A DNA stretch of 40,626 nt from a virus. Shown piece after piece: positions 441 through 40,496 of the stretch. The stretch lies in IMG/VR virus record IMGVR_UViG_2885676553_000001, positions 1 through 40,626 of that record; one strand, given 5' to 3'. Positions within the stretch are counted from its first letter, which is position 1; every line of letters starts with the position of its first letter. Position numbers and translations under genes: made by a program. Below the pieces are notes generated by a model that saw only the letters and a list, made by a program, of their open reading frames with translations, ran no database searches and was not told where the DNA came from.

Positions 441-1409
441 CTACAAACATTCCTTCAATTTTTTGATTTTGTTAAACACGCTAGTGGACAAAACTAAATC
501 GAAGATGTCCTGTGAACCCACCGACTTCTGAAACTCAGTTACTGCTTCGGCATATTCCTTAATGAACCTAGAAATTTCCCGTTTAGGCATTCTGAGAGCT
601 CTTAAATAATAAACAAGGAGGGCTACATAGTCTGTTAGGGTTTCGAAAGTTATTTGACTGACACCCAGCTCGGATTCCAACTGGTGGGTAACTGTGTCTC
701 GGACCTTGTCCTTCTTGAACCGGCAATCAAATACAATATTATTATGCGCAATGGCATTCCTAAGGTCTTTCAGAAGAAAAACATGCCGCACAATAAAAGT
801 AGCATCCGTATCAATTGAGCCATCATAAACGCCAACGTTCTGGGACAGCTCAATACGTTTATTACCATTCATTACGTCCAAAAATGAGCCGAATTCCGCC
901 ATGCTGAAAAGCTCAAATATGGCCCAAATAGGAACACCTTCACCCTTATGCATGTAATGCTGAATCATCACTGAACTCCCATAGCGCTGAGCAATTAATT
1001 CATCAATTGTATTCTTAAGCCTGAGTCGATCGGTTATGCGCTCCTTATACTTCTTCTTGCTGGTCTCTTCCTTATACCGGTTAAGGCTGGTTTGGAAAAC
1101 CGCATCAATTGAAGGATCAATTCCATTGGACACAATAGCAATAGTACGGTTTTTGAGGGCGGTTTCTACCCGCATCATTCGAGGATAGAGAAGAGACTTA
1201 ACCGAGCTATCAAACTCATAGATTGCCTGGACTTGTCTAAACTCCGACAACTCCATCTTCTGGTTGTTGGAAGTCAATCGATAAGCTTTATATCCATGAT
1301 AATAGCCCATATCTAATAAGGCCCTCTTATCAGAGCTTCCGCCAACGTCTATGCTATGCTTATCGCGAATGTGGCGCATCAGAGCGTCAGTCGATTTTCC
1401 CTTTTTCAT
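441..1409 (-). CDS. Abi_2 family (AbiD/AbiF-like) HEPN abortive-infection protein
   Basis: 322-aa ORF with SD GGAGA before the ATG. The N-terminus (KSTDALMRHIRDKHSI...GYYHGYKAY) and the R-x4-H motif (LRNAIAHNN) match my memory of Pfam Abi_2. It has its own terminators on both sides. Confidence 0.75.
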   Translation of the reverse strand: MKKGKSTDALMRHIRDKHSIDVGGSSDKRALLDMGYYHGYKAYRLTSNNQKMELSEFRQVQAIYEFDSSVKSLLYPRMMRVETALKNRTIAIVSNGIDPSIDAVFQTSLNRYKEETSKKKYKERITDRLRLKNTIDELIAQRYGSSVMIQHYMHKGEGVPIWAIFELFSMAEFGSFLDVMNGNKRIELSQNVGVYDGSIDTDATFIVRHVFLLKDLRNAIAHNNIVFDCRFKKDKVRDTVTHQLESELGVSQITFETLTDYVALLVYYLRALRMPKREISRFIKEYAEAVTEFQKSVGSQDIFDLVLSTSVFNKIKKLKECL

Positions 1410-17714: not shown

Positions 17715-17888
17715 TCACCCCCTTTCTTTGTCCAGAATATAGGCAGCTAAGCACAACTCAAAGCCCGATGCTAGATAACCAATAACAACATTAAAGGTGA
17801 ATGCCGCCACTGCAATCAGTGCCAAGCCGGTGATGAATAGCATCACCGTGCCCCAACTGCTGAACAAATTGCTAATAATCTTTGCCAT
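17715..17888 (-). CDS. Small hydrophobic protein (57 aa)
   Basis: ORF below the track cutoff: MAKIISNLFSSWGTVMLFITGLALIAVAAFTFNVVIGYLASGF.... TAATG overlap with the TerL stop. Confidence 0.4.
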   Translation of the reverse strand: MAKIISNLFSSWGTVMLFITGLALIAVAAFTFNVVIGYLASGFELCLAAYILDKERG

Positions 17889-19777
17889 TATTTACCACCT
17901 CCAAACATTGCCTTGAAGAAGTCACGTTTTCCTTGTGTGTCTAGGTCATTCAGCGGGTTATATCCCTCATCATGATAGTTTTCGAAATAGAATTTTGCCT
18001 GCGCATGAGCATTAATAAGCGCATCAGTCGTATCAATATGATCACTCGTGCGATTTTGACGATCAATCTTGACCGAACCGCCGCGATCTTCTACCAATAC
18101 AGCATTGTTTAGCCCATCGATCAGCAGCGGATCATTTAGCATCGAAATGTTGCCATTAATAAACAGATTCTGAAAGTCCTTAGTAGGCTCATTCAGCTTG
18201 AACGAGGTAGGAGGCAAAGGAAACCATTGCCACTGTGGTTGATAATTCTCCAGTTTCTTTTCAAGCCATTCACCATGGTTTGGATCAGCAATGATGAATT
18301 TGACCTTGAGCCGATGTTGATTAACATAATCAACCAACCACTGGTAAACCTGATCGGTGTTGATTACGCCTGATGCAAGATTGGTGATGTCAACGAATCC
18401 TTCATCTTGCAATTTAAGGTAATCTAATCCGTCCTGTTTCGACTTGGCTTCAATCGTTTTTGCCTGTGCGAAGGGAATAAAGCTGTGCTGCTGAACATGA
18501 AACATGTGTTTGTCATGATCAGTGTACGGATAAATGAAGCCAAAAGACGTATTATCATTTGTCTGTGACCCGTCAAACCCGATAAACACATCACGCCCGT
18601 TCACATCGAAGTGGTCAATAATACTGCGTTGAATGTTGTCTAGGGACAAATAGCTGTTCTGGAATCTCCGGCTCCACAGATTTAGTGACTTATTTACGAA
18701 GGTTTCAAGTGTTCCCTCACGTTCATTATCGTTGCGATCCTGATTAAGAGCATTTTGAAGGTTGTCCCGTTTACTCTTTTGCAGCTCAAGCAGATTAGGA
18801 TTAGATTTTGCCCATGTTTCGGGTTCAAATACCTCATCCTCTGAGTCCTGAGCATAAATTACTTGGAATACGTTGTCAGCGTCTCGAACGGCGTCATGCT
18901 CAATGGCAGCCCTAGTTACGTCTTCATCATTCTTAAACTTAACCTTGATATCAGGGTAAGCTGTTGAAATCTTGACAAACATTCGGTTCTTAATGCCATT
19001 TTGTCCGGATGTAATCTGTTTTAAGGTCTCATTCAGTGCTGGCCTCAAGTTACCAATTTCATCATAAACAGCGATTGCATTGTGGAAACTATCAAAGCCA
19101 CCACCTTGTGATGTGCCTTTTCGGATCGTATTCTTAGTGTTTTTTGCAATAACTTGCGTGGTATGAGCTTCCACGCCTCGCTCTCTAGCATCATCTGCAA
19201 AGTCCGGCAGAGACAAAATCGTCTTTGCCTGCAAAGACACGTCATTGAACAGCTTGGTTGCATGTTCACTATCGTAACTAGCCACTAGCAAATCCTGTGA
19301 TGTCGCATTCCAGCAGACTACAAAGTAATAAAAGTTGATTAGAATTGATGCTAGCCAAGTTTTGCCTTGCTGCCGAGCAATAGAAATATTAGAGGTCGTG
19401 AATCGAGTGCCGTTGTCAACGGTTCGCCATCCAATCAAGCTATCAAGAATGAACGATTGCCATTTGAATGGTTGAATTGTTTTCGACGTATCGTCTGGAT
19501 TAGGCAGCAGTCGTGAAAAGTATTCAATTGCGTTGACCATGTCTGAGTTGTATTGGTAGGGAAAATCATCATTGCCAATCCGCAATAAATCATTCAAGTG
19601 TCTAATACATGCCAGCTGAACATCTCTACCAGTCATGTATTTATTGCTGAACATAACGTCATAAGCGTATCTTGTTCCTGGATCGTGGTACTTATCAAAC
19701 AGTTCTTGGTAATCTGATTGGTACGGCTTTACGTATCCACGAATATCAGTTACACCGGTAAAATCAAACGTCTGCAC
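17888..19777 (-). CDS. terL: Terminase large subunit
   Basis: About 629 aa. Probable GTG start at 19777, 9 nt after GAAGGAGG. Position and size match the TerL slot downstream of TerS. Confidence 0.9.
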   Translation of the reverse strand: MQTFDFTGVTDIRGYVKPYQSDYQELFDKYHDPGTRYAYDVMFSNKYMTGRDVQLACIRHLNDLLRIGNDDFPYQYNSDMVNAIEYFSRLLPNPDDTSKTIQPFKWQSFILDSLIGWRTVDNGTRFTTSNISIARQQGKTWLASILINFYYFVVCWNATSQDLLVASYDSEHATKLFNDVSLQAKTILSLPDFADDARERGVEAHTTQVIAKNTKNTIRKGTSQGGGFDSFHNAIAVYDEIGNLRPALNETLKQITSGQNGIKNRMFVKISTAYPDIKVKFKNDEDVTRAAIEHDAVRDADNVFQVIYAQDSEDEVFEPETWAKSNPNLLELQKSKRDNLQNALNQDRNDNEREGTLETFVNKSLNLWSRRFQNSYLSLDNIQRSIIDHFDVNGRDVFIGFDGSQTNDNTSFGFIYPYTDHDKHMFHVQQHSFIPFAQAKTIEAKSKQDGLDYLKLQDEGFVDITNLASGVINTDQVYQWLVDYVNQHRLKVKFIIADPNHGEWLEKKLENYQPQWQWFPLPPTSFKLNEPTKDFQNLFINGNISMLNDPLLIDGLNNAVLVEDRGGSVKIDRQNRTSDHIDTTDALINAHAQAKFYFENYHDEGYNPLNDLDTQGKRDFFKAMFGGGK

Positions 19778-20231
19778 CGAACCCAACCTCCTTCAATGGA
19801 CTGTTTTTCTTAGGCTTTTCCGGTTCTTCGACAGTTATCTGGCGTAATCCAGAGTCAAATGTAAGTCCTAAATCATGTCCTAACGACTTCATATTCTTCA
19901 CACAAGAGTCCATTTGAACAGCTCCAGGAGAACGCTTCACCGCAACGTTATCGTTGTCATAAATCCACAGTCCCTGTTGTTCAATCAACTGCTCAGACTT
20001 AATGTAAAGTGAGTAATAACGGCAATACAGTTCAAGGCTTGGCTGGTCAATCTTTTTCAGGTAACCAAGTTTCTTGACTTCTGGAATAAGTGACTTCCAC
20101 AATCGGCTTGCTTCGTCGTCAAGGTGAACAGGAGGCGTGTTCTGAATGTCCTTCATATCGTCGTTGCAATCAGAGCAACTTTTATCAGAATTTGCGGGTA
20201 AAATTGTCAATTTTGGGTGATTTTCGGGCAC
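19764..20231 (-). CDS. terS: Terminase small subunit (P27 family-like)
   Basis: 155 aa with a GTG start after AAAGGAGG. The LELYCRYYSLYIKSEQ...LGLTFDSGLR pattern fits the P27 family. Confidence 0.75.
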   Translation of the reverse strand: MPENHPKLTILPANSDKSCSDCNDDMKDIQNTPPVHLDDEASRLWKSLIPEVKKLGYLKKIDQPSLELYCRYYSLYIKSEQLIEQQGLWIYDNDNVAVKRSPGAVQMDSCVKNMKSLGHDLGLTFDSGLRQITVEEPEKPKKNSPLKEVGFGADV

Positions 20232-21572: not shown

Positions 21573-22574
21573 CTATGCACGGATTTCCAGCAGTGCTCTC
21601 ACTTTACTAGAAACCCTATTTGCGAGTTCGCTGTTTCCTTGATACCCATTATCATAAAACTCGGTATACTCAGACGAAATGTCCGCCGGAAGATGTTCAC
21701 CATAATCTTCTTTAAAGCTTTCTCTGCTGCAAATTGTAATAACTTTTTTGCCAATTGTGTGACAAATACCGAGCTCATAAAACACATTTGGATTTTTATA
21801 GCTCAAATCAGCTATAGCAAAAGCCGATGTGCAAATATCTTGCCAAATATTTTCTACAATATCATTTCCTCTATTAGGATCGAACATATCCTCCGATTTT
21901 ATGATACTGACGTCGTCTCCTACTTTATCAACAATCGCTGTCATTGCATTAAGTGGTTCTTCTTTAAAAGGCAATATATAAAAAATCTTATTCTTATTGA
22001 CAACCATATTACGTGCCTTAAATTTCGGATCAATAATCATCATGTTGTTTTTCCTTTCGAAATACTTGATTATATTGGTAGAATTATATTCTAGGTTGGC
22101 TTTTAAATCTTTTGCATCATTTACTAGTTCTTTGAATTTTGCAAGCTTTGATTCGGTCGGTGTTACAGTAATGCTTGTCAATTGCTTAGAATATTTAGAT
22201 ATGAGGTTTACTGGTATTTGAACAAAGAATTGAGGACTGTACCCTCGGCATAGGCCCATATGAATACCTAATAATTCGTGTGCTTGAGATATGCTTTGTG
22301 CTTGCATATTCAAAAACGATATTTCTTCAAACCCATGTATGGCTTTTTGACTGGTTAATCCTAAAACCACCTGATTTGTCGCTAATAGCCCCCAAACATT
22401 ATATGGTTGAACAAGCGATACTCTAGTAAGTCCCACTTGCATCAATGACGGGTCATTTTGAGCATAGTCAAGCAGACAGTCTAAATACGTGATTAAATTT
22501 TTAGCATCCAATCCATATATAAAATCATTTATTGTCGACACGTCTTTAATCCCGGATAAATTTGTTTTCATCAT
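21573..22574 (-). CDS. AT-rich accessory protein: unknown N-terminal domain plus C-terminal NDT/TIR-like Rossmannoid-looking domain (candidate defence effector)
   Basis: 333 aa from ATGATG at 22574, with SD GAGGTGA 5 nt upstream. Visibly AT-rich compared with its neighbours. C-terminal block: IFYILPF...AFAIADLSYKNPNVFYELGICHTIGKKVITI. The GTG-extended 374-aa track ORF runs through the leader hairpin and has no SD. Confidence 0.6.
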   Translation of the reverse strand: MMKTNLSGIKDVSTINDFIYGLDAKNLITYLDCLLDYAQNDPSLMQVGLTRVSLVQPYNVWGLLATNQVVLGLTSQKAIHGFEEISFLNMQAQSISQAHELLGIHMGLCRGYSPQFFVQIPVNLISKYSKQLTSITVTPTESKLAKFKELVNDAKDLKANLEYNSTNIIKYFERKNNMMIIDPKFKARNMVVNKNKIFYILPFKEEPLNAMTAIVDKVGDDVSIIKSEDMFDPNRGNDIVENIWQDICTSAFAIADLSYKNPNVFYELGICHTIGKKVITICSRESFKEDYGEHLPADISSEYTEFYDNGYQGNSELANRVSSKVRALLEIRA

Positions 22575-22578
22575 TTCT

Positions 22579-22633
22579 ATCACCTCAAAAAAATAGTACC
22601 CCAGCACGAACTGGAATACTACATTGAGGTGAT
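22579..22633 (-). promoter_or_regulatory. SD-sequestering hairpin / terminator-like element immediately 5' of the 333-aa gene
   Basis: Perfect 10-nt inverted repeat: atcacctcaa (22579-22588) and ttgaggtgat (22624-22633). The inner stem GUAGUA..CCAG-UUCGUG-CUGG..UACUAU is followed by U7. The 3' arm contains the SD GAGGUGA. Confidence 0.6.
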
Positions 22634-22811
22634 GTCTGTGCTTCATATCTAATGGTCTTGGAGTGACAGACTCCAAAGCGAGCGGGCGGAGTTGCACCTC
22701 CCTGTTTCAACATTGAGTAACCGGTATCAATGCCTTCCCTCATCTGTTGCTCGCATAATACGGTATTGGGTAATGTCAACCGCTTTGCCCTCTAGAAAGG
22801 CTCTAACCTAA

Positions 22812-22865
22812 TGCAATCGCCGGGAATCGGACCCGGCACCATGAGGTGATCCATTTCGGTTGCAC
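22812..22865 (-). ncRNA. Anticodon-arm-less tRNA-like minihelix
   Basis: Minus RNA: GUGCAACC-GAAAUGGAUCACCUCAUGGUG-CCGGG-UCCGAUU-CCCGG-CGAUUGCA. It has a T-arm-like hairpin and the same 3' acceptor strand as the tRNA-like gene at 23061-23135. Confidence 0.35.
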
Positions 22866-23060
22866 TGACACACTCCCGGATACCGCGCCGGGCCGCTAAC
22901 GGTGGTACCACCATCCAGTGTGAGTGTGTCCGCCCACACTGGCCATTGTTGTGTTGATGGGCGAGATCTATACCAGTCCCATCATGGCCGCGTCCGGCAC
23001 TTTCCAATCAGTCAATCGACATCATGGCTGCGGAGGTTAAAACTCCTAGCATCAAACATA
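22866..23060 (-). ncRNA. GC-rich structured RNA candidate (strand inferred from the flanking tRNA-like elements)
   Basis: No credible ORF. Crossing helices gacacactc(22867-75)/gagtgtgtc(22922-30) and ccagtgtg(22915-22)/cacactgg(22935-42). Hairpins cccgg/ccggg (22875-92), ggtggtaccacc (22901-12) and gatggg/cccatc (22956-83). Direct repeat catcatggc at 22980 and 23020. Confidence 0.4.
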
Positions 23061-23135
23061 TGCAATCGGCAGGCATCGAACCTGCATCGTGTTCACATCG
23101 CGCTAACGTGCCGCTTTACTTTAAGCTACGATTGC
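23061..23135 (-). tRNA. tRNA-like gene with a canonical acceptor and T arm but an aberrant D loop and anticodon region
   Basis: Minus RNA: GCAAUCG UA GCUU AAAGUA AAGC GG CACGU UAGCGCG AUGUG AACACGAU GCAGG UUCGAUG CCUGC CGAUUGC A. Anomalies: no GG in the D loop, A at position 33, 8-nt variable region, no encoded CCA. Confidence 0.45.
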
Positions 23136-23218
23136 ACTCGGATTATCGCTACCCGAATCATTCAACACTATCAGAATAACAGTGAATTTTGTTCAAGTGG
23201 TTACTACTTAGTTGCAAT

Positions 23219-23677
23219 TTAGTCACTTAGAAGTTGCTTGCTCGTCTCATTTCTTAACACGATCAGCTCATGATTTGGGTAAGATTCGGCAAACTCGAAC
23301 AATGCGGCTGTCTTTTGGCGTTTAGCAGTGCCAACACTTCCAAACCCCATACGTTCTGCGACTTGCCACATTTCTAGCTCCTCTGGCGTGCAGTAGCAAA
23401 AGTACAATAACCATTTGCTTTGAAACTTGCACAGCGCTAACGCGTTATCAATCACTCCGATATGTGCCTCAGCATCCAGCACCTTATCCAGCCTAGCAAC
23501 AAGGGCGGCTTCAGTACCGTTTTGAAATGATTGAGCTTTCGGCATCCCGTCCATAGATGGTGACTTGAGATCAGTCAACGGGCGACCTGCCAAGCGCGCA
23601 TAGTGTCGATATTCTTTTAGCTTCTGGCGAGCCTTATCACAACTAGCCTTTTCATCAATTTCTGGAAACAATGCCAT
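23219..23677 (-). CDS. arpU: ArpU-family late transcription regulator
   Basis: 152 aa with SD GGGGTGG. It is the last gene of the early operon before the packaging module, and the sequence style fits the ArpU/sigma-like family. Confidence 0.7.
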   Translation of the reverse strand: MALFPEIDEKASCDKARQKLKEYRHYARLAGRPLTDLKSPSMDGMPKAQSFQNGTEAALVARLDKVLDAEAHIGVIDNALALCKFQSKWLLYFCYCTPEELEMWQVAERMGFGSVGTAKRQKTAALFEFAESYPNHELIVLRNETSKQLLSD

Positions 23678-35939: not shown

Positions 35940-36704
35940 ATGAAGTCAACAACAGCTCAACGGCTAAATCAGTTAATGACAGACCGCGGACTAAAACAGG
36001 TCGATATTTTGAACATGTCCAAGCCCTTCCAAAAGTCTCTTGGCATTAAAATGGGGAAAAGCACTCTTTCCCAATACGTTAATGGGGTTCAGTCACCCGA
36101 CCAAGATCGTATTTATTTACTAGCACATACTCTTAACGTTAGTGAGCCTTGGCTGATGGGGTTCGATGTCCCCCAAGAACGTCGATCGAGCAAAAAGACC
36201 CGCGAGGCTTCCACTGACATACTCCCCATATACAACAAGCTCCACCCCGCCCGCCAGCAGAACGTGTACACCTATGCGGAAGATCAGCTCAAGCAACAGC
36301 AGAACGAGAATGTTGTCCCGTTACCAGAACAGCGCGAGGTTGTTTGCGGGCGTGGTACAGCTGCCGGTGCTCCTATCGATGGCGCCACACAGGACGCTGA
36401 GGTGCGTAGGACGCGCGTCAATGTTAACGACATCCCAGCTAGTGCAGATGAAATCGTGACCGTTGAGGGGGACTCGATGGAGCCAGACTACCCGAAGTAT
36501 TCGCAGATATTTGTTCGATGGCAAGACACAATCGATGACGGCGATCTGGCTGTTGTCCGTGTGGCTGACGAAGGCGTCACATTTAAGCAGGTGTCCCGCG
36601 ACTACCAGCAAAAGAAAATTGTTCTACACTCACTGAATGACAAGTATCCTGACCGATACTTGGATCCCGAAGATGTCAGCATCATAGGCGTTGTCATCAA
36701 CTAA
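35940..36704 (+). CDS. CI-like repressor (XRE HTH plus S24 LexA-like peptidase)
   Basis: 254 aa with SD AAGGAGG. N-terminal HTH_3 and a C-terminal GDSMEP autocleavage-type motif. Confidence 0.9.
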   Translation: MKSTTAQRLNQLMTDRGLKQVDILNMSKPFQKSLGIKMGKSTLSQYVNGVQSPDQDRIYLLAHTLNVSEPWLMGFDVPQERRSSKKTREASTDILPIYNKLHPARQQNVYTYAEDQLKQQQNENVVPLPEQREVVCGRGTAAGAPIDGATQDAEVRRTRVNVNDIPASADEIVTVEGDSMEPDYPKYSQIFVRWQDTIDDGDLAVVRVADEGVTFKQVSRDYQQKKIVLHSLNDKYPDRYLDPEDVSIIGVVIN

Positions 36705-36794: not shown

Positions 36795-37943
36795 GTGAAT
36801 ACAAATAAACAAATGGTACCGGAGCTTCGCTTCAAGGGGTTCACTGACGCTTGGGAAGAGCGTAAGTTAAAAGAACTTGGTGATATACAGACAGGTAATA
36901 CACCTCCAACAAGTAATTTGGATAATTATTCTACTGACGGCGTACTATGGGTTACTCCAACAGATATCAAAACGCTTGTTATATCTGATACTGCTAAAAA
37001 ACTATCTGAAGTAGGTGTGACAAAAGCAAGGATTGCTAAAGCAGGATCGATACTAGTTACTAGTATTGCAAGTATTGGGAAAAACACCTTAGTAACAATG
37101 GATGCTGGTTTTAATCAACAAATAAATTCACTCACTCCAACGCCTAAAAATGACTCCTATTTTCTGTTGACTCAATCAGAAAAGTGGTCTGAAAAGATGA
37201 AGAAAACTGCAGCATCAGCAACCATGCAGATAGTTAACAAAACAGATTTTTCAAATATCTCCACCTTTGTTCCTGTACACAAAGAGGAGCAACAAAAAAT
37301 CGGCTCATTTTTCAGGCAACTAGATGAAACTATCGCTCTTCATCAACGTAAGTTATATCTACTCAAGGAACAGAAAAAAGGCTACTTGCAGAAGTTGTTC
37401 CCCAAAAATGGAAGCAAGTTCCCGCAATTAAGATTTGCTGGATTTACTGACGCTTGGGAAAAGCGTCCTATCAAGAAAATCGCTAGCGTGAACGGTGGCA
37501 AGGACTACAAGCACCTTAACAAGGGTGACATTCCAGTCTATGGAACTGGCGGATACATGCTAAGTGTCGACCAGGCTTTATCTCAGGAAGACGGCATTGG
37601 CATTGGGCGAAAAGGTACAATTAACTCCCCCTACATTCTAAGAGCTCCATACTGGACCGTAGATACGTTGTTCTATGTGATACCTAAGGGGACACAAGAT
37701 ATAAATTTTCTGTATGCAATTTTTCAACGAGTTAACTGGAAGAAATACGACGAGTCTACCGGTGTACCATCATTGTCGAAACAAACAATCAATGCCGTGG
37801 AAGTTACAACTCCTACTCAAGCTGAACAAGAATTGATTGGAACGATGTTTAAGCAACTTGATAATCTCATCGCAGTCAACCAGCGTAAGGTTGAACTGTT
37901 AAAAAAATTGAAGCAAGCCTATCTCCAGAAAATGTTCGTGTAG
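36795..37943 (+). CDS. hsdS: Type I restriction-modification specificity subunit (orphan HsdS)
   Basis: 382 aa with two TRD halves, each opened by (E/Q)LRF(K/A)GFTDAWE(E/K)R. Two conserved helices are present (IGSFFRQLDETIALHQRKL..., IGTMFKQLDNLIAVNQRKV...). GTG start after GAGGTGA. Confidence 0.9.
   Translation: MNTNKQMVPELRFKGFTDAWEERKLKELGDIQTGNTPPTSNLDNYSTDGVLWVTPTDIKTLVISDTAKKLSEVGVTKARIAKAGSILVTSIASIGKNTLVTMDAGFNQQINSLTPTPKNDSYFLLTQSEKWSEKMKKTAASATMQIVNKTDFSNISTFVPVHKEEQQKIGSFFRQLDETIALHQRKLYLLKEQKKGYLQKLFPKNGSKFPQLRFAGFTDAWEKRPIKKIASVNGGKDYKHLNKGDIPVYGTGGYMLSVDQALSQEDGIGIGRKGTINSPYILRAPYWTVDTLFYVIPKGTQDINFLYAIFQRVNWKKYDESTGVPSLSKQTINAVEVTTPTQAEQELIGTMFKQLDNLIAVNQRKVELLKKLKQAYLQKMFV
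36839..36863 (+). repeat. hsdS intragenic direct repeat, copy 1
   Basis: Sequence gttcactgacgcttgggaagagcgt. The 15-nt core actgacgcttgggaa is identical to that at 37446-37460. Confidence 0.7.
37442..37466 (+). repeat. hsdS intragenic direct repeat, copy 2
   Basis: Sequence atttactgacgcttgggaaaagcgt, at the start of the second TRD half. Confidence 0.7.
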
Positions 37944-39245: not shown

Positions 39246-39359
39246 CGAAAAAGCGCCTGTCCCCATACCTTGACCGGTCAGGACAGACGCTAGGCAAGAA
39301 CTCGCTCGATGAGTGCGCTCTTTGTGTACTCTATTTTAACCTAAATGGAGGAAATTATC

Positions 39360-40496
39360 ATGGCATCTTACGAAAAACGTGGGACCGGTTGGCAGTTTCG
39401 TATCTCATGGCAGGACGAACAGGGCAAACGACATACCAAATCCAATGGTGGTTTCCGCACTAAGAAACTCGCCGAAAATGCTGCACACGATCTAGAGGTA
39501 AAACTCGCACACGGCTCGCATATTGACCGTGCGGATCTACCCCTAGTTGATTACTGGCATCAATGGTGCACCACTTATAAAATCGGTAAACGCGCTGTCG
39601 CCACAGAATACTTTTATCCAATCATTGAAACGACACTCAAAGATTACTTTGGTGATACGCCACTCGGCAAGATCACGCCCTTAAAATGGCAAGCCTTTCT
39701 AAACGACTATGGCGACACTCATGCGCGATCAACTAGCTCAAAGGTCAATGGATATATTCGTGCCATGGTACGCACCGCTATCAACGAACAAACTTTACAC
39801 ACCGACTTCACCTTTGATGCTGAAATTTCCGGTGAGCGTGGTGTTGATGAAGCCGACAAGTACCTTCAGCTTGATCAGTTTGCCGAGCTAGTTAACTTAG
39901 CACATGAAACGGCGGACTTTAATCACCTTGCAACTGTCGCCGTTTATGTCGGCGCAGAATCAGGAATGCGAGTGGCCGAAGTGCTTGGTCTTACGTGGGA
40001 TTGTGTGGATTTTGAAGCCAATACACTCACCATTAATAAATCATGGGACTATATTCATCATACGGGTTTCAAGCCAACGAAAAACGAATCCAGTAATCGA
40101 ACCGTCGAAGTTCTACCCGCAGTCACTGATTTACTCCGCCAAGTCAAAGTCCAACAAGCGGCTTGGATGCTGAAAACGGGCCAGCGTGACAAGCACAACT
40201 GCGTTTTTTATTCTAAGTATTCTCAGGTCCTTACTGGTGCGGCGTGTAATAAGGCACTTAAAAATATGGAGACCAAAATCGGCATCCCCAATGACGATCA
40301 AATCACCTTCCACGGCTTGCGTCATACCCATGTCTCTTATCTCCTATCCGAGGGTATCGATATTTACTATATCTCAAAGCGACTTGGCCACGCCGGCATC
40401 CAGATCACGATGAGCACTTACAGCCACTTATTGGACGCACAGAAATCTAAACAGGCATCAAAAGCAATGGTGGCGCTGGATAAGCTTGCCCGATAA
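39360..40496 (+). CDS. int: Tyrosine integrase
   Basis: 378 aa from MASYEKRGTGWQFRISW with SD GGAGGA. Catalytic signature present: MRVAEVLGL (R), HGLRHTH (HxxR), LGHAGIQITMSTYSH (H...Y). Confidence 0.9.
   Translation: MASYEKRGTGWQFRISWQDEQGKRHTKSNGGFRTKKLAENAAHDLEVKLAHGSHIDRADLPLVDYWHQWCTTYKIGKRAVATEYFYPIIETTLKDYFGDTPLGKITPLKWQAFLNDYGDTHARSTSSKVNGYIRAMVRTAINEQTLHTDFTFDAEISGERGVDEADKYLQLDQFAELVNLAHETADFNHLATVAVYVGAESGMRVAEVLGLTWDCVDFEANTLTINKSWDYIHHTGFKPTKNESSNRTVEVLPAVTDLLRQVKVQQAAWMLKTGQRDKHNCVFYSKYSQVLTGAACNKALKNMETKIGIPNDDQITFHGLRHTHVSYLLSEGIDIYYISKRLGHAGIQITMSTYSHLLDAQKSKQASKAMVALDKLAR

Follow-up and report, generated by a model that had tools for sequence, protein, structure and literature searches.

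Results

A noncoding locus between arpU and the late genes

We analysed a 40,626-nucleotide stretch of viral DNA (IMG/VR record IMGVR_UViG_2885676553_000001, positions 1 to 40,626; hereafter the window), which is a prophage of a Lacticaseibacillus temperate siphophage; the phage records nearest to it are all casei, paracasei or rhamnosus phages. Two tRNA-like elements, module 1 (23135-23061) and module 2 (22863-22812), lie on its minus strand within a noncoding locus of ~630 nt that runs from the end of arpU to an intrinsic terminator (about 23218-22590). It is well supported that both modules are cassettes of tRNA-like RNA genes in this locus, which precedes the late genes. It is likewise well supported that the cassettes found here in related phages are interchangeable, some being tRNA-like, with sound acceptor and T arms and a defective or missing anticodon arm, and others being structured RNAs of a non-tRNA kind. 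The initial annotation of this DNA, which described the two modules, overlooked the setting that matters most: the modules belong to a noncoding locus that is both conserved and modular, and between them lies a structured RNA with covariation support. Along the minus strand the order is arpU, module 1, a 195-nt interval, module 2, further noncoding sequence, the terminator, and the ribosome-binding site (RBS) and ATG (22574) of the first late open reading frame (ORF). MFE below stands for minimum free energy, and loci of related phages are given by L numbers where they must be told apart.

23219-23677, minus strand: gene for an ArpU-family late transcriptional activator (phrog_248; the J-1, T25 and LJ orthologues are annotated ArpU)
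23136-23218, minus strand: leader from the arpU stop codon to module 1, the presumed site of an ArpU-dependent late promoter, from synteny and PMC3753634
23061-23135, minus strand: module 1, a cloverleaf tRNA-like element of 75 nt (ARAGORN, Rfam, MFE fold, family variants)
22948-23060, minus strand: spacer from module 1 to the 3' domain of the core RNA, with weaker structural support than that domain
22866-22947, minus strand: 3' domain of a conserved structured core RNA (covariation; model R1, 100.5 bits; no Rfam match)
22812-22865, minus strand: module 2, a mini tRNA-like element (sequence, fold, homologues with compensatory changes, indel relative to L084)
22758-22810, minus strand: 53-nt module of two hairpins, matched at 96% identity by unannotated DNA of the myophages Lb338-1 and Lbab1
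22677-22754, minus strand: probable third tRNA-like element, read from the sequence and conserved in L084 and L103
22593-22622, minus strand: intrinsic terminator-like hairpin of 13 bp with a U7 tract, closing the noncoding locus; relatives have homologous terminators

The terminator is strong, and the RBS and ATG of the first late ORF follow it at once; this leaves no space for a promoter, so the late genes would need read-through. The late promoter driven by an ArpU-type activator directly follows the activator gene (PMC3753634). We also considered a coding explanation for the locus and rejected it: the ORFs at 22902-23222 (plus strand) and 22792-23007 (minus strand) have no Pfam or PHROG match and are disrupted in relatives by 53-nt and 16-nt indels.

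Module 1 is a cloverleaf with an aberrant anticodon arm

On the minus strand module 1 reads GCAAUCG-UA-GCUU-AAAGUA-AAGC-G-G-CACGU-UAGCGCG-AUGUG-AACACGAU-GCAGG-UUCGAUG-CCUGC-CGAUUGC-A. The initial annotation had drawn this sequence as a cloverleaf, and both the ARAGORN drawing and the MFE fold reproduce it. The acceptor stem is GCAAUCG/CGAUUGC, to which the ARAGORN version adds one U-A pair, and the D stem GCUU/AAGC closes a 6-nt D loop (AAAGUA) without GG. The anticodon stem CACGU/AUGUG carries, in the ARAGORN fold, the loop U-A-GCG-C-G, which places A at position 33 and C at position 37. An 8-nt variable region, AACACGAU, leads to the T arm GCAGG-UUCGAUG-CCUGC, whose T loop is canonical, and the discriminator is A. 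ARAGORN names 23060-23136 (minus strand) tRNA-Arg(gcg), and module 1 reaches 42.5 bits (E = 7.4e-06) with the Rfam tRNA model RF00005, whose gathering score is 29, making it the sole Rfam family match at threshold in the whole window.

Module 1 thus has the cloverleaf and the RF00005 gathering score of a canonical elongator tRNA. Its anticodon loop departs from the canonical 7-nt pattern, in which position 33 is U and position 37 a purine, and, with no GG in its D loop, it lacks the pairing of G18G19 with a U54-U55-C56 T loop. The Rfam alignment accommodates the anticodon arm only with a 2-nt insertion, and the MFE fold narrows the loop to 5 nt. Alternative anticodon registers did not help: the shift that gives U33 costs two to three stem mismatches, and a canonical loop comes from no register. 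The tRNA name given by the two programs does not remove these anomalies, since both use the aberrant anticodon loop; indeed, neither ARAGORN nor Rfam found a normal tRNA under a fold that had been missed, and both used the one already proposed. Of the oddities first listed for module 1, the D loop without GG, the A33 loop and the 8-nt variable region all stand, and the missing CCA is no anomaly (PMC8549757).

The module 1 family comprises seven distinct sequences including that of the window. Six relatives came from a search anchored on the 5' acceptor strand and D arm only, which removes ascertainment bias toward the anticodon arm. GGCACGUUAGCGCGAYGUGAACACGAU is nevertheless kept in 7/7 variants, with an identical A33/C37 loop in all of them, and the variation sits outside the anticodon arm, in the D loop, T stem, T loop and 3' acceptor strand. 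The T stem covaries (GCAGG/CCUGC versus GCGGG/CCCGC). The L098-100 relatives have an A.A mismatch in the acceptor, and the L103 relative (355-445) has a 16-nt, GGAGGCCAUGAUAAGCC-like insertion in the D loop with the remainder intact. The L099 and L103 variants do have a D-loop GG, and the L103 locus also contains a canonical tRNA-Ile(UAU) of 71.8 bits.

The 8-mer CGUUAGCG occurs, on the minus strand, both in the invariant anticodon arm of module 1 (23100-23107) and in the linker of the core RNA described below (22895-22902). About 0.2 such matches are expected by chance, and Lrm1-type cores contain a similar UUUAGCG in their 5' part.

Module 2 belongs to a family of armless mini-helices

Module 2 is a 52-nt mini-helix of acceptor, hairpin and T arm, without a D arm or an anticodon arm. 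Its sequence from 22863 to 22812 is GCAACCG-AAAUGGAU-CACC-UCAU-GGUG-CCGGG-UCCGAUU-CCCGG-CGAUUGC-A. The acceptor strands GCAACCG (22863-22857) and CGAUUGC (22819-22813) form six of seven pairs, with a C.A mismatch at pair 5; the hairpin CACC-UCAU-GGUG occupies 22848-22837, the T arm CCGGG-UCCGAUU-CCCGG 22836-22820, and the discriminator is A22812. C replaces U55 in the T loop UCCGAUU. The minihelix without an anticodon arm had been recognized at the outset, and its acceptor and T arms do form, with the acceptor C.A mismatch left unmentioned. Two further early observations hold as well: module 2 repeats the 3' half of module 1 (20/28 positions identical in a 28-nt plus-strand alignment), and the T-stem differences between them are compensatory, both T stems being self-complementary.

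Rfam reports no tRNA match for module 2 at E values up to 10. When we searched the window for a relaxed T-arm motif combined with 6/7 acceptor pairs, it occurred four times, compared with 3.2 +/- 1.7 times in shuffled sequences; module 1 exceeds chance and module 2 alone does not. The 9-mer ATGCAATCG, common to both modules, has five copies in the window on the two strands, the three others lying inside coding regions. Module 2 is credible because its homologues carry compensatory changes and because, relative to L084, it is a clean ~53-nt cassette indel.

These homologues form a family of 52-58-nt acceptor/T-arm mini-helices (minis) without an anticodon arm. They are found in L011/L022 (an L. 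suibinensis prophage), R24.2, R3.3 and Lbab1/Lb338-1, with a longer form in T25 and JNU_P10. Between the Lbab1/Lb338-1 mini and that of R24.2, seven stem positions differ and no pair is broken: acceptor pair 3 changes from A-U to G-C, acceptor pair 6 from C-G to U-A and T pair 3 from G-C to A-U, all on both sides, and T pair 1 changes on one side from U.G to U-A. The central hairpin also covaries (GAGG/CCUC in R24.2 versus AAGG/CCUU in R3.3). The acceptor sequence and the discriminator (A, G or C) vary across the family, and the L011 acceptor is perfect, with CGGUUGC. Module 2 of the window is the most degenerate member. The initial view that neither element is a canonical tRNA is borne out in both cases, by the A33/C37 loop of all seven module 1 variants and by the armless family of module 2.

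With relaxed settings ARAGORN proposes an 85-nt tRNA-Cys(gca) fold at 22896-22812. This fold has acceptor mismatches and gains no support from the changes in L011, and the mini-helix is preferred.

Module 2 also holds GGAUCACCUC (22843-22852, minus strand), which is complementary to the extended Shine-Dalgarno sequence GAGGUGAU (22579-22586, minus strand) of the ORF 260 nt downstream. We take GGAUCACCUC to match the 3' end of Firmicute 16S rRNA. This match is probably a coincidence, because it is absent in L011, which has GGACCACCCC, and in other relatives, which have GGAUCAAC.

The two modules are independent cassettes that share an acceptor

The initial annotation had noted that the two modules share an acceptor strand. 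The acceptor GCAAYCG/CGRUUGC is common to the module 1 family, the minis, an element of phage A2 and an element of L014; because it occurs in several cassette types, it is a family trait and not a special two-module arrangement. In the window, keeping it costs module 2 its one C.A mismatch. Furthermore, L084 lacks module 2, a clean ~53-nt indel, but has module 1 and the core RNA; L011 lacks module 1 but has module 2. Since each of these loci carries one module without the other, modules 1 and 2 are independent cassettes. We also considered a split or intron-containing tRNA made of the 5' half of module 1 and the 3' half of module 2 and rejected it: the modules occur independently, and no group I intron model matches.

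A structured core RNA lies between the modules

The interval between the modules contains a real structured RNA that is absent from Rfam, with no match in the window or in the relatives' loci. It spans 22866-22990 (minus strand) and has three hairpins with compensatory changes. H3 (22942-22915) is a 10-bp helix with a loop, CGGACACA, that contains GACAC, and H4 (22914-22899) has 6 bp. The linker UAGCGG at 22898-22893, whose invariant form is (G/U)UUAGCGG (CGUUAGCGG), leads to P5 (22892-22875), a 5-bp hairpin with the invariant loop CGCGGUAU, and to a GUGUC tail at 22871-22867. A pseudoknot between GACAC and GUGUC is possible; the data are compatible with it, and include one one-sided change and no double changes.

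In an ungapped alignment of eight distinct core sequences, 96.6% of cells pair and seven pairs are changed on both sides. None of 500 shuffles reaches the observed values, and slid controls pair in 30-37% of cells. A covariance model built from the alignment finds the domain in 17 loci, including Lbab1, with 31-111 bits. In the model-fitted alignment, which leans toward the structure, 14 of 21 pairs show double changes. The 3' domain is ~75% identical between the window and Lrm1, whose ArpU proteins are 33% identical.

The locus is widespread and its cassettes are shuffled

When the equivalent intergenic region of Lrm1 was used as a query, 47 casei-group phage records proved to have a homologous locus, among them A2, J-1, PL-1, phiAT3, Lc-Nu, CL1/CL2, BH1 and T25. 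It lies downstream of arpU in all 19 loci examined. The locus is present in almost every sequenced casei-group phage, well-studied ones included, yet it is unannotated or misannotated as small ORFs: the records show nothing, small hypothetical ORFs or, once, 'tRNA-OTHER' (the phage CL2 element), and our literature searches found no published description of it. A genome-collection scan with a 16-base pattern returned mostly chance matches, only five Lacticaseibacillus loci being real, and a metagenome scan gave two matches, which we presume to be chance.

Alignments show cassettes present in some phages and absent from others, with one to several tRNA-like elements in each locus. ARAGORN labels those of the relatives tRNA-Met, tRNA-Leu or 'tRNA-???' with 2-nt anticodons. 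Their Rfam scores are 25-51 bits, compared with 58-72 bits for genuine tRNAs in or beside some of the loci; an Rfam search of the divergent relative L086 found nothing. The genuine tRNAs include tRNA-Ile(UAU) of 69.6-71.8 bits, which lies in the noncoding locus of L103 and beside a tRNA-like element in L038, a tRNA-Arg(CCU) upstream of the ROOL RNA in Lbab1, and a tRNA-Trp at another position in L085.

Several of the cassettes are also carried by two virulent 140-kb myophages, Lbab1 and Lb338-1: the core RNA, the mini, the 53-nt module (96% identity) and a 150-nt insert of Lrm1. In both, these cassettes lie directly downstream of a ROOL RNA (RF03087, 201-213 bits) that is unannotated in the records (Lbab1, L002, 584-1156; Lb338-1, L001, 3224-3796) and is bracketed by a tRNA and a tRNA-like element. 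A 112-nt 'tRNA-Ser' annotated in Lbab1 scores only 32.9 bits.

Remaining elements of the locus and the prophage

In the spacer, a hairpin GAUGGG...CCCAUC (22983-22956, minus strand) is common to the window and L084. The first hairpin of the 53-nt module shows compatible changes between copies (GCCUU/AGGGC, GUCUU/AAGGC and GCCUU/AAGGC). The probable third tRNA-like element has the acceptor GCGAGC/GCUCGC, an imperfect T-like arm stacked on it (GGGAGG-UGCAACU-CCGCCC) and one long central arm; ARAGORN reports it only at ps60, and the evidence for it is weaker than for modules 1 and 2.

The first late ORF encodes 333 amino acids (21573-22574, minus strand) and belongs to phrog_26406, of unknown function. 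Its listed GTG start (22697) overruns the noncoding locus, and the PHROG match starts at residue 32; the ATG at 22574 is the likely start. A TIR-type defence effector model of PADLOC weakly matches the C-terminus of the product (E = 4.8e-4), and the gene may be a defence or counter-defence moron. The other genes to which we refer below, from the annotation of the window, are:

39345-40496: integrase
35940-36704: cI-like repressor
17888-20231: TerL and TerS
441-1409, minus strand: AbiD/Abi_2 abortive-infection gene, beside the lysin gene
36795-37943, plus strand: orphan type I restriction specificity subunit, beside the repressor gene

Discussion

For RNase P, RNase Z and the CCA-adding enzyme, a coaxial acceptor/T-arm helix suffices as a substrate. 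This acceptor/T mini-helix, together with a UUCRANY T loop, is what is kept across the tRNA-like elements of these loci, and the decoding end is lost or scrambled. None of the 16 tabulated elements encodes CCA, and 15 of the 16 have U at position +1 after the discriminator. In Streptococcus and Lactococcus at least, tRNA genes are CCA-less and their transcripts are cut by RNase Z (PMC8549757), so the elements match the RNase Z substrates of lactic acid bacteria (PMC8549757). They also abut modules of other kinds: module 2 begins 1-2 nt after the GUGUC tail of the core, and the next tRNA-like element follows the core at 1-2 nt in L012 and L014 and at 5 nt in Lrm1. The combination of an intact acceptor/T helix, a lost decoding end, no CCA, U at +1 and abutting modules leads us to favour the hypothesis that the tRNA-like elements are handles for RNase P, RNase Z and the CCA enzyme and serve as punctuation in a late precursor of several RNAs. 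We put forward this reading of the sequences tentatively, with a little less than even confidence. Of the roles suggested in the initial annotation, processing signals and enzyme handles fit the anatomy best.

Under this hypothesis, the locus would be transcribed as a single precursor when late transcription starts, and the acceptor/T-arm mini-helix of each tRNA-like element would be recognized by RNase P, RNase Z and the CCA-adding enzyme. RNase Z would cut after the discriminator of module 1, near 23061, and module 2 would be cut by RNase P at its own 5' end, near 22864. The two cuts would release a structured core RNA of ~195 nt with defined ends, and stable tRNA-like by-products of ~75 nt and ~52 nt. 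The tRNA-like elements would not decode codons. We hypothesize further, with more doubt, that the locus exemplifies an undescribed kind of phage noncoding operon, in which host tRNA enzymes cut the late precursor at degenerate tRNA-like cassettes to yield a new pseudoknotted RNA and stable armless tRNA mimics.

Several observations weigh against processing punctuation. A promoter scan found no sigma-70 consensus on the minus strand of the locus, and a direct-repeat search found no ArpU-type repeats there, so that the place of the locus at the front of the late transcript is an inference. The core of L084 has no tRNA-like element directly 3' of it, which means that flanking on both sides is not obligatory, and individual cassettes are dispensable among phages. 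Module 2 of the window, with its C.A mismatch and U55 to C change, may be a poor substrate. Canonical tRNAs in some relatives' loci (tRNA-Ile(UAU) in L103 and L038) mean that the tRNA-like elements could be relics. Finally, processing alone leaves the invariance of the anticodon arm and variable region of module 1 unexplained.

This invariance fits another of the initially proposed roles. The elements could be decoys or sponges, tRNA-like RNAs that accumulate late and soak up a tRNA-directed factor of the host or of a competitor, thereby shielding real tRNAs or blunting abortive infection. An anticodon arm and variable region that stay invariant across seven variants, with variation in other parts, are what a recognized surface would look like, and the presence of the cassettes in unrelated phage families of the same host genus fits a host-directed function; phage tRNAs do counter tRNA-targeting defences (PMC10264068, PMC11555353), some immune nucleases target tRNA tails (PMC12851939), and the prophage has AbiD and an orphan type I specificity subunit of its own. 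The minis, however, have no anticodon arm and cannot mimic the substrates of anticodon nucleases, and their varying acceptors and discriminators (A, G, C) do not imply a single sequence-specific partner. In the loci examined, the cassettes have no associated partner protein; the connection to HEPN nucleases raised in the initial annotation is speculation, and nothing ties the AbiD/Abi_2 gene at 441-1409 to either module. The anticodon arm of module 1 is probably unlike that of a bacterial tRNA-Arg(ACG), which also speaks against this role. We rate decoys lower than processing and regard them as rather unlikely; the factor bound could be an anticodon nuclease, an acceptor-end nuclease, a modification enzyme or a toxin. 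Neither do we give better prospects to the idea that the locus is a former phage tRNA island whose genes are now functionless, drifting pseudogenes, persisting through recent ancestry and recombination. The canonical tRNAs of the relatives (tRNA-Ile(UAU) at 69.6-71.8 bits in L103 and L038, tRNA-Arg(CCU) in Lbab1) would be its survivors, the A.A mismatch of L098-100 and the D-loop insertion of L103 its scars, and module 2, which has a C.A mismatch and a damaged T loop and does not exceed chance alone, its debris; cassettes are also gained and lost between phages. Drift does not account for the seven stem differences between the Lbab1/Lb338-1 and R24.2 minis that preserve every pair, for the covarying T stem of module 1 beside an aberrant anticodon arm that stays invariant, or for the U kept at +1 in 15/16 elements, and conservation is much higher in the noncoding modules than in the ArpU gene beside them.

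The terminator invites a different explanation, in which the entire structured region with its tRNA-like folds acts in cis as a late leader and controls read-through at 22622-22593 by antitermination or attenuation of the late operon; the closest analogies would be the lambda PR'-tR' 6S leader and the HK022 put RNA. The terminator stands between the locus and the first late ORF with no separate promoter space, relatives have the same arrangement, and the position directly after arpU is conserved. Virulent myophages nevertheless carry the same cassettes in their tRNA/ROOL island, where there is no ArpU/terS context, and the modules between core and terminator vary freely in number and length. 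We know of no antitermination RNA that needs a tRNA-like fold, and consider the cis-acting role improbable. Still less probable is that module 1 is a working tRNA-Arg for CGC and CGU whose odd anticodon loop evades anticodon nucleases. C35, G36 and the A discriminator are compatible with arginine identity, both ARAGORN and Rfam call it a tRNA, and phage tRNAs with altered anticodon loops are documented (PMC10264068). CGU and CGC make up 54% of the arginine codons in the phage ORFs, which could be cited in favour of such a tRNA; being common codons, they leave the codon-compensation rationale inapplicable. Module 1 has A33 in place of the near-universal U33, C37 in place of a purine, no G18G19 and an 8-nt variable region, it scores 42.5 bits against 62-72 bits for genuine tRNAs in neighbouring loci, and its relatives tolerate a 16-nt D-loop insertion and an acceptor mismatch. 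We give hardly any credence to the last alternative, that the repeated 3' half is an integrase att-site relic, left when site-specific recombination targeted a tRNA gene. Phages of the casei group do use tRNA gene 3' ends as integration sites (PMC6950654), and a duplicated tRNA 3' half is classically the mark of such an event. The integrase gene (39345-40496) is 16 kb away, however, and the copies are 250 nt apart and only 20/28 identical; this is not the layout of an att site in a tRNA gene, with a 3' half beside the integrase and an identical repeat at the other prophage end. The same cassettes are carried by virulent myophages that do not integrate, and the module 2 cassette has its own 5' acceptor strand and hairpin, beyond a mere 3' half.

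Comparison with known systems indicates that the elements belong to no tested family beyond the nominal pass of module 1 in the tRNA model. Module 1 resembles phage tRNAs and pseudo-tRNAs in being accepted by tRNA detectors and in occupying a position that holds real tRNAs in relatives; unlike genuine phage tRNAs, it scores ~20-30 bits below its genuine neighbours, and module 2 lacks both D and anticodon arms. With the tRNA-like domains of tmRNA and YrlA the elements share an acceptor and T-arm mimic without a decoding anticodon arm, a likeness that the initial annotation had drawn and that neither Rfam nor ARAGORN supports. The tmRNA models (RF00023 and the permuted RF04321) reach 15-18 bits, below their gathering score of 47 (window best 15.1), and ARAGORN proposes a tmRNA only at nonsense thresholds; in contrast to tmRNA there is no G3.U70 (pair 3-70 is A-U, or G-C in Lbab1), tag reading frame or pseudoknot ring. 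No Y RNA or YrlA family appears among the Rfam matches at E values up to 10 in 22400-23400, and no Ro/Rsr gene was noticed, no systematic search for one having been made.

Another resemblance is to eukaryotic tRNA-like processing modules. The tRNA-like parts of the murine gammaherpesvirus 68 TMERs recruit processing enzymes. The mascRNA at the 3' end of MALAT1 (and MEN-beta; RF01684) likewise has a tRNA-like fold, which brings in RNase P and/or RNase Z and so defines the ends of the RNA (PMC8457004). As in mascRNA and the TMERs, intact acceptor and T arms are combined here with a reduced or non-decoding anticodon arm and fused to other noncoding RNA; those systems are eukaryotic or from eukaryotic viruses, whereas cleavage in the window is a prediction. 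The resemblance stops short of membership: the mascRNA model gives the L109 and L011 minis 26.0 and 26.1 bits (E ~0.4) against a gathering score of 42.5, and it has no match to module 2 of the window.

The setting, in turn, recalls the islands of the giant RNAs ROOL (RF03087) and GOLLD. To our knowledge, neither these RNAs nor the phage tRNA islands have a known function. ROOL and GOLLD sit near phage tRNA islands, and GOLLD rises during lysis (PMC12286853, PMC5737381). The window shares with them a phage or prophage setting in which a structured RNA of unknown function is interleaved with tRNA or tRNA-like genes, and its cassettes (core, mini and 53-nt module) lie directly downstream of ROOL in Lbab1. 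It differs in containing no ROOL or GOLLD itself by Rfam, a feature found in Lbab1 and Lb338-1, in having a far smaller structured RNA (about 130-195 nt, matching no Rfam family), and in flanking elements that are mostly non-canonical tRNA mimics and not working tRNAs.

The conserved, tractable noncoding RNA locus is of greater interest than the two modules that it holds. The locus is a compact version of the tRNA-island arrangement, a covariation-supported unknown RNA bracketed by tRNA mimics that retain only the part recognized by RNase P, RNase Z and the CCA enzyme. Should the processing hypothesis fail, the elements would still serve as a warning that tRNA finders label non-decoding mimics 'tRNA-Arg', 'tRNA-Met' or 'tRNA-Leu'. 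If it is right, they would be the counterpart, in bacterial viruses, of the tRNA-like modules by which MALAT1 and the herpesvirus TMERs are processed, and the small, tractable casei-group phages (A2, J-1 and the BL23 prophages) would offer an experimental route into the ROOL/GOLLD tRNA islands.

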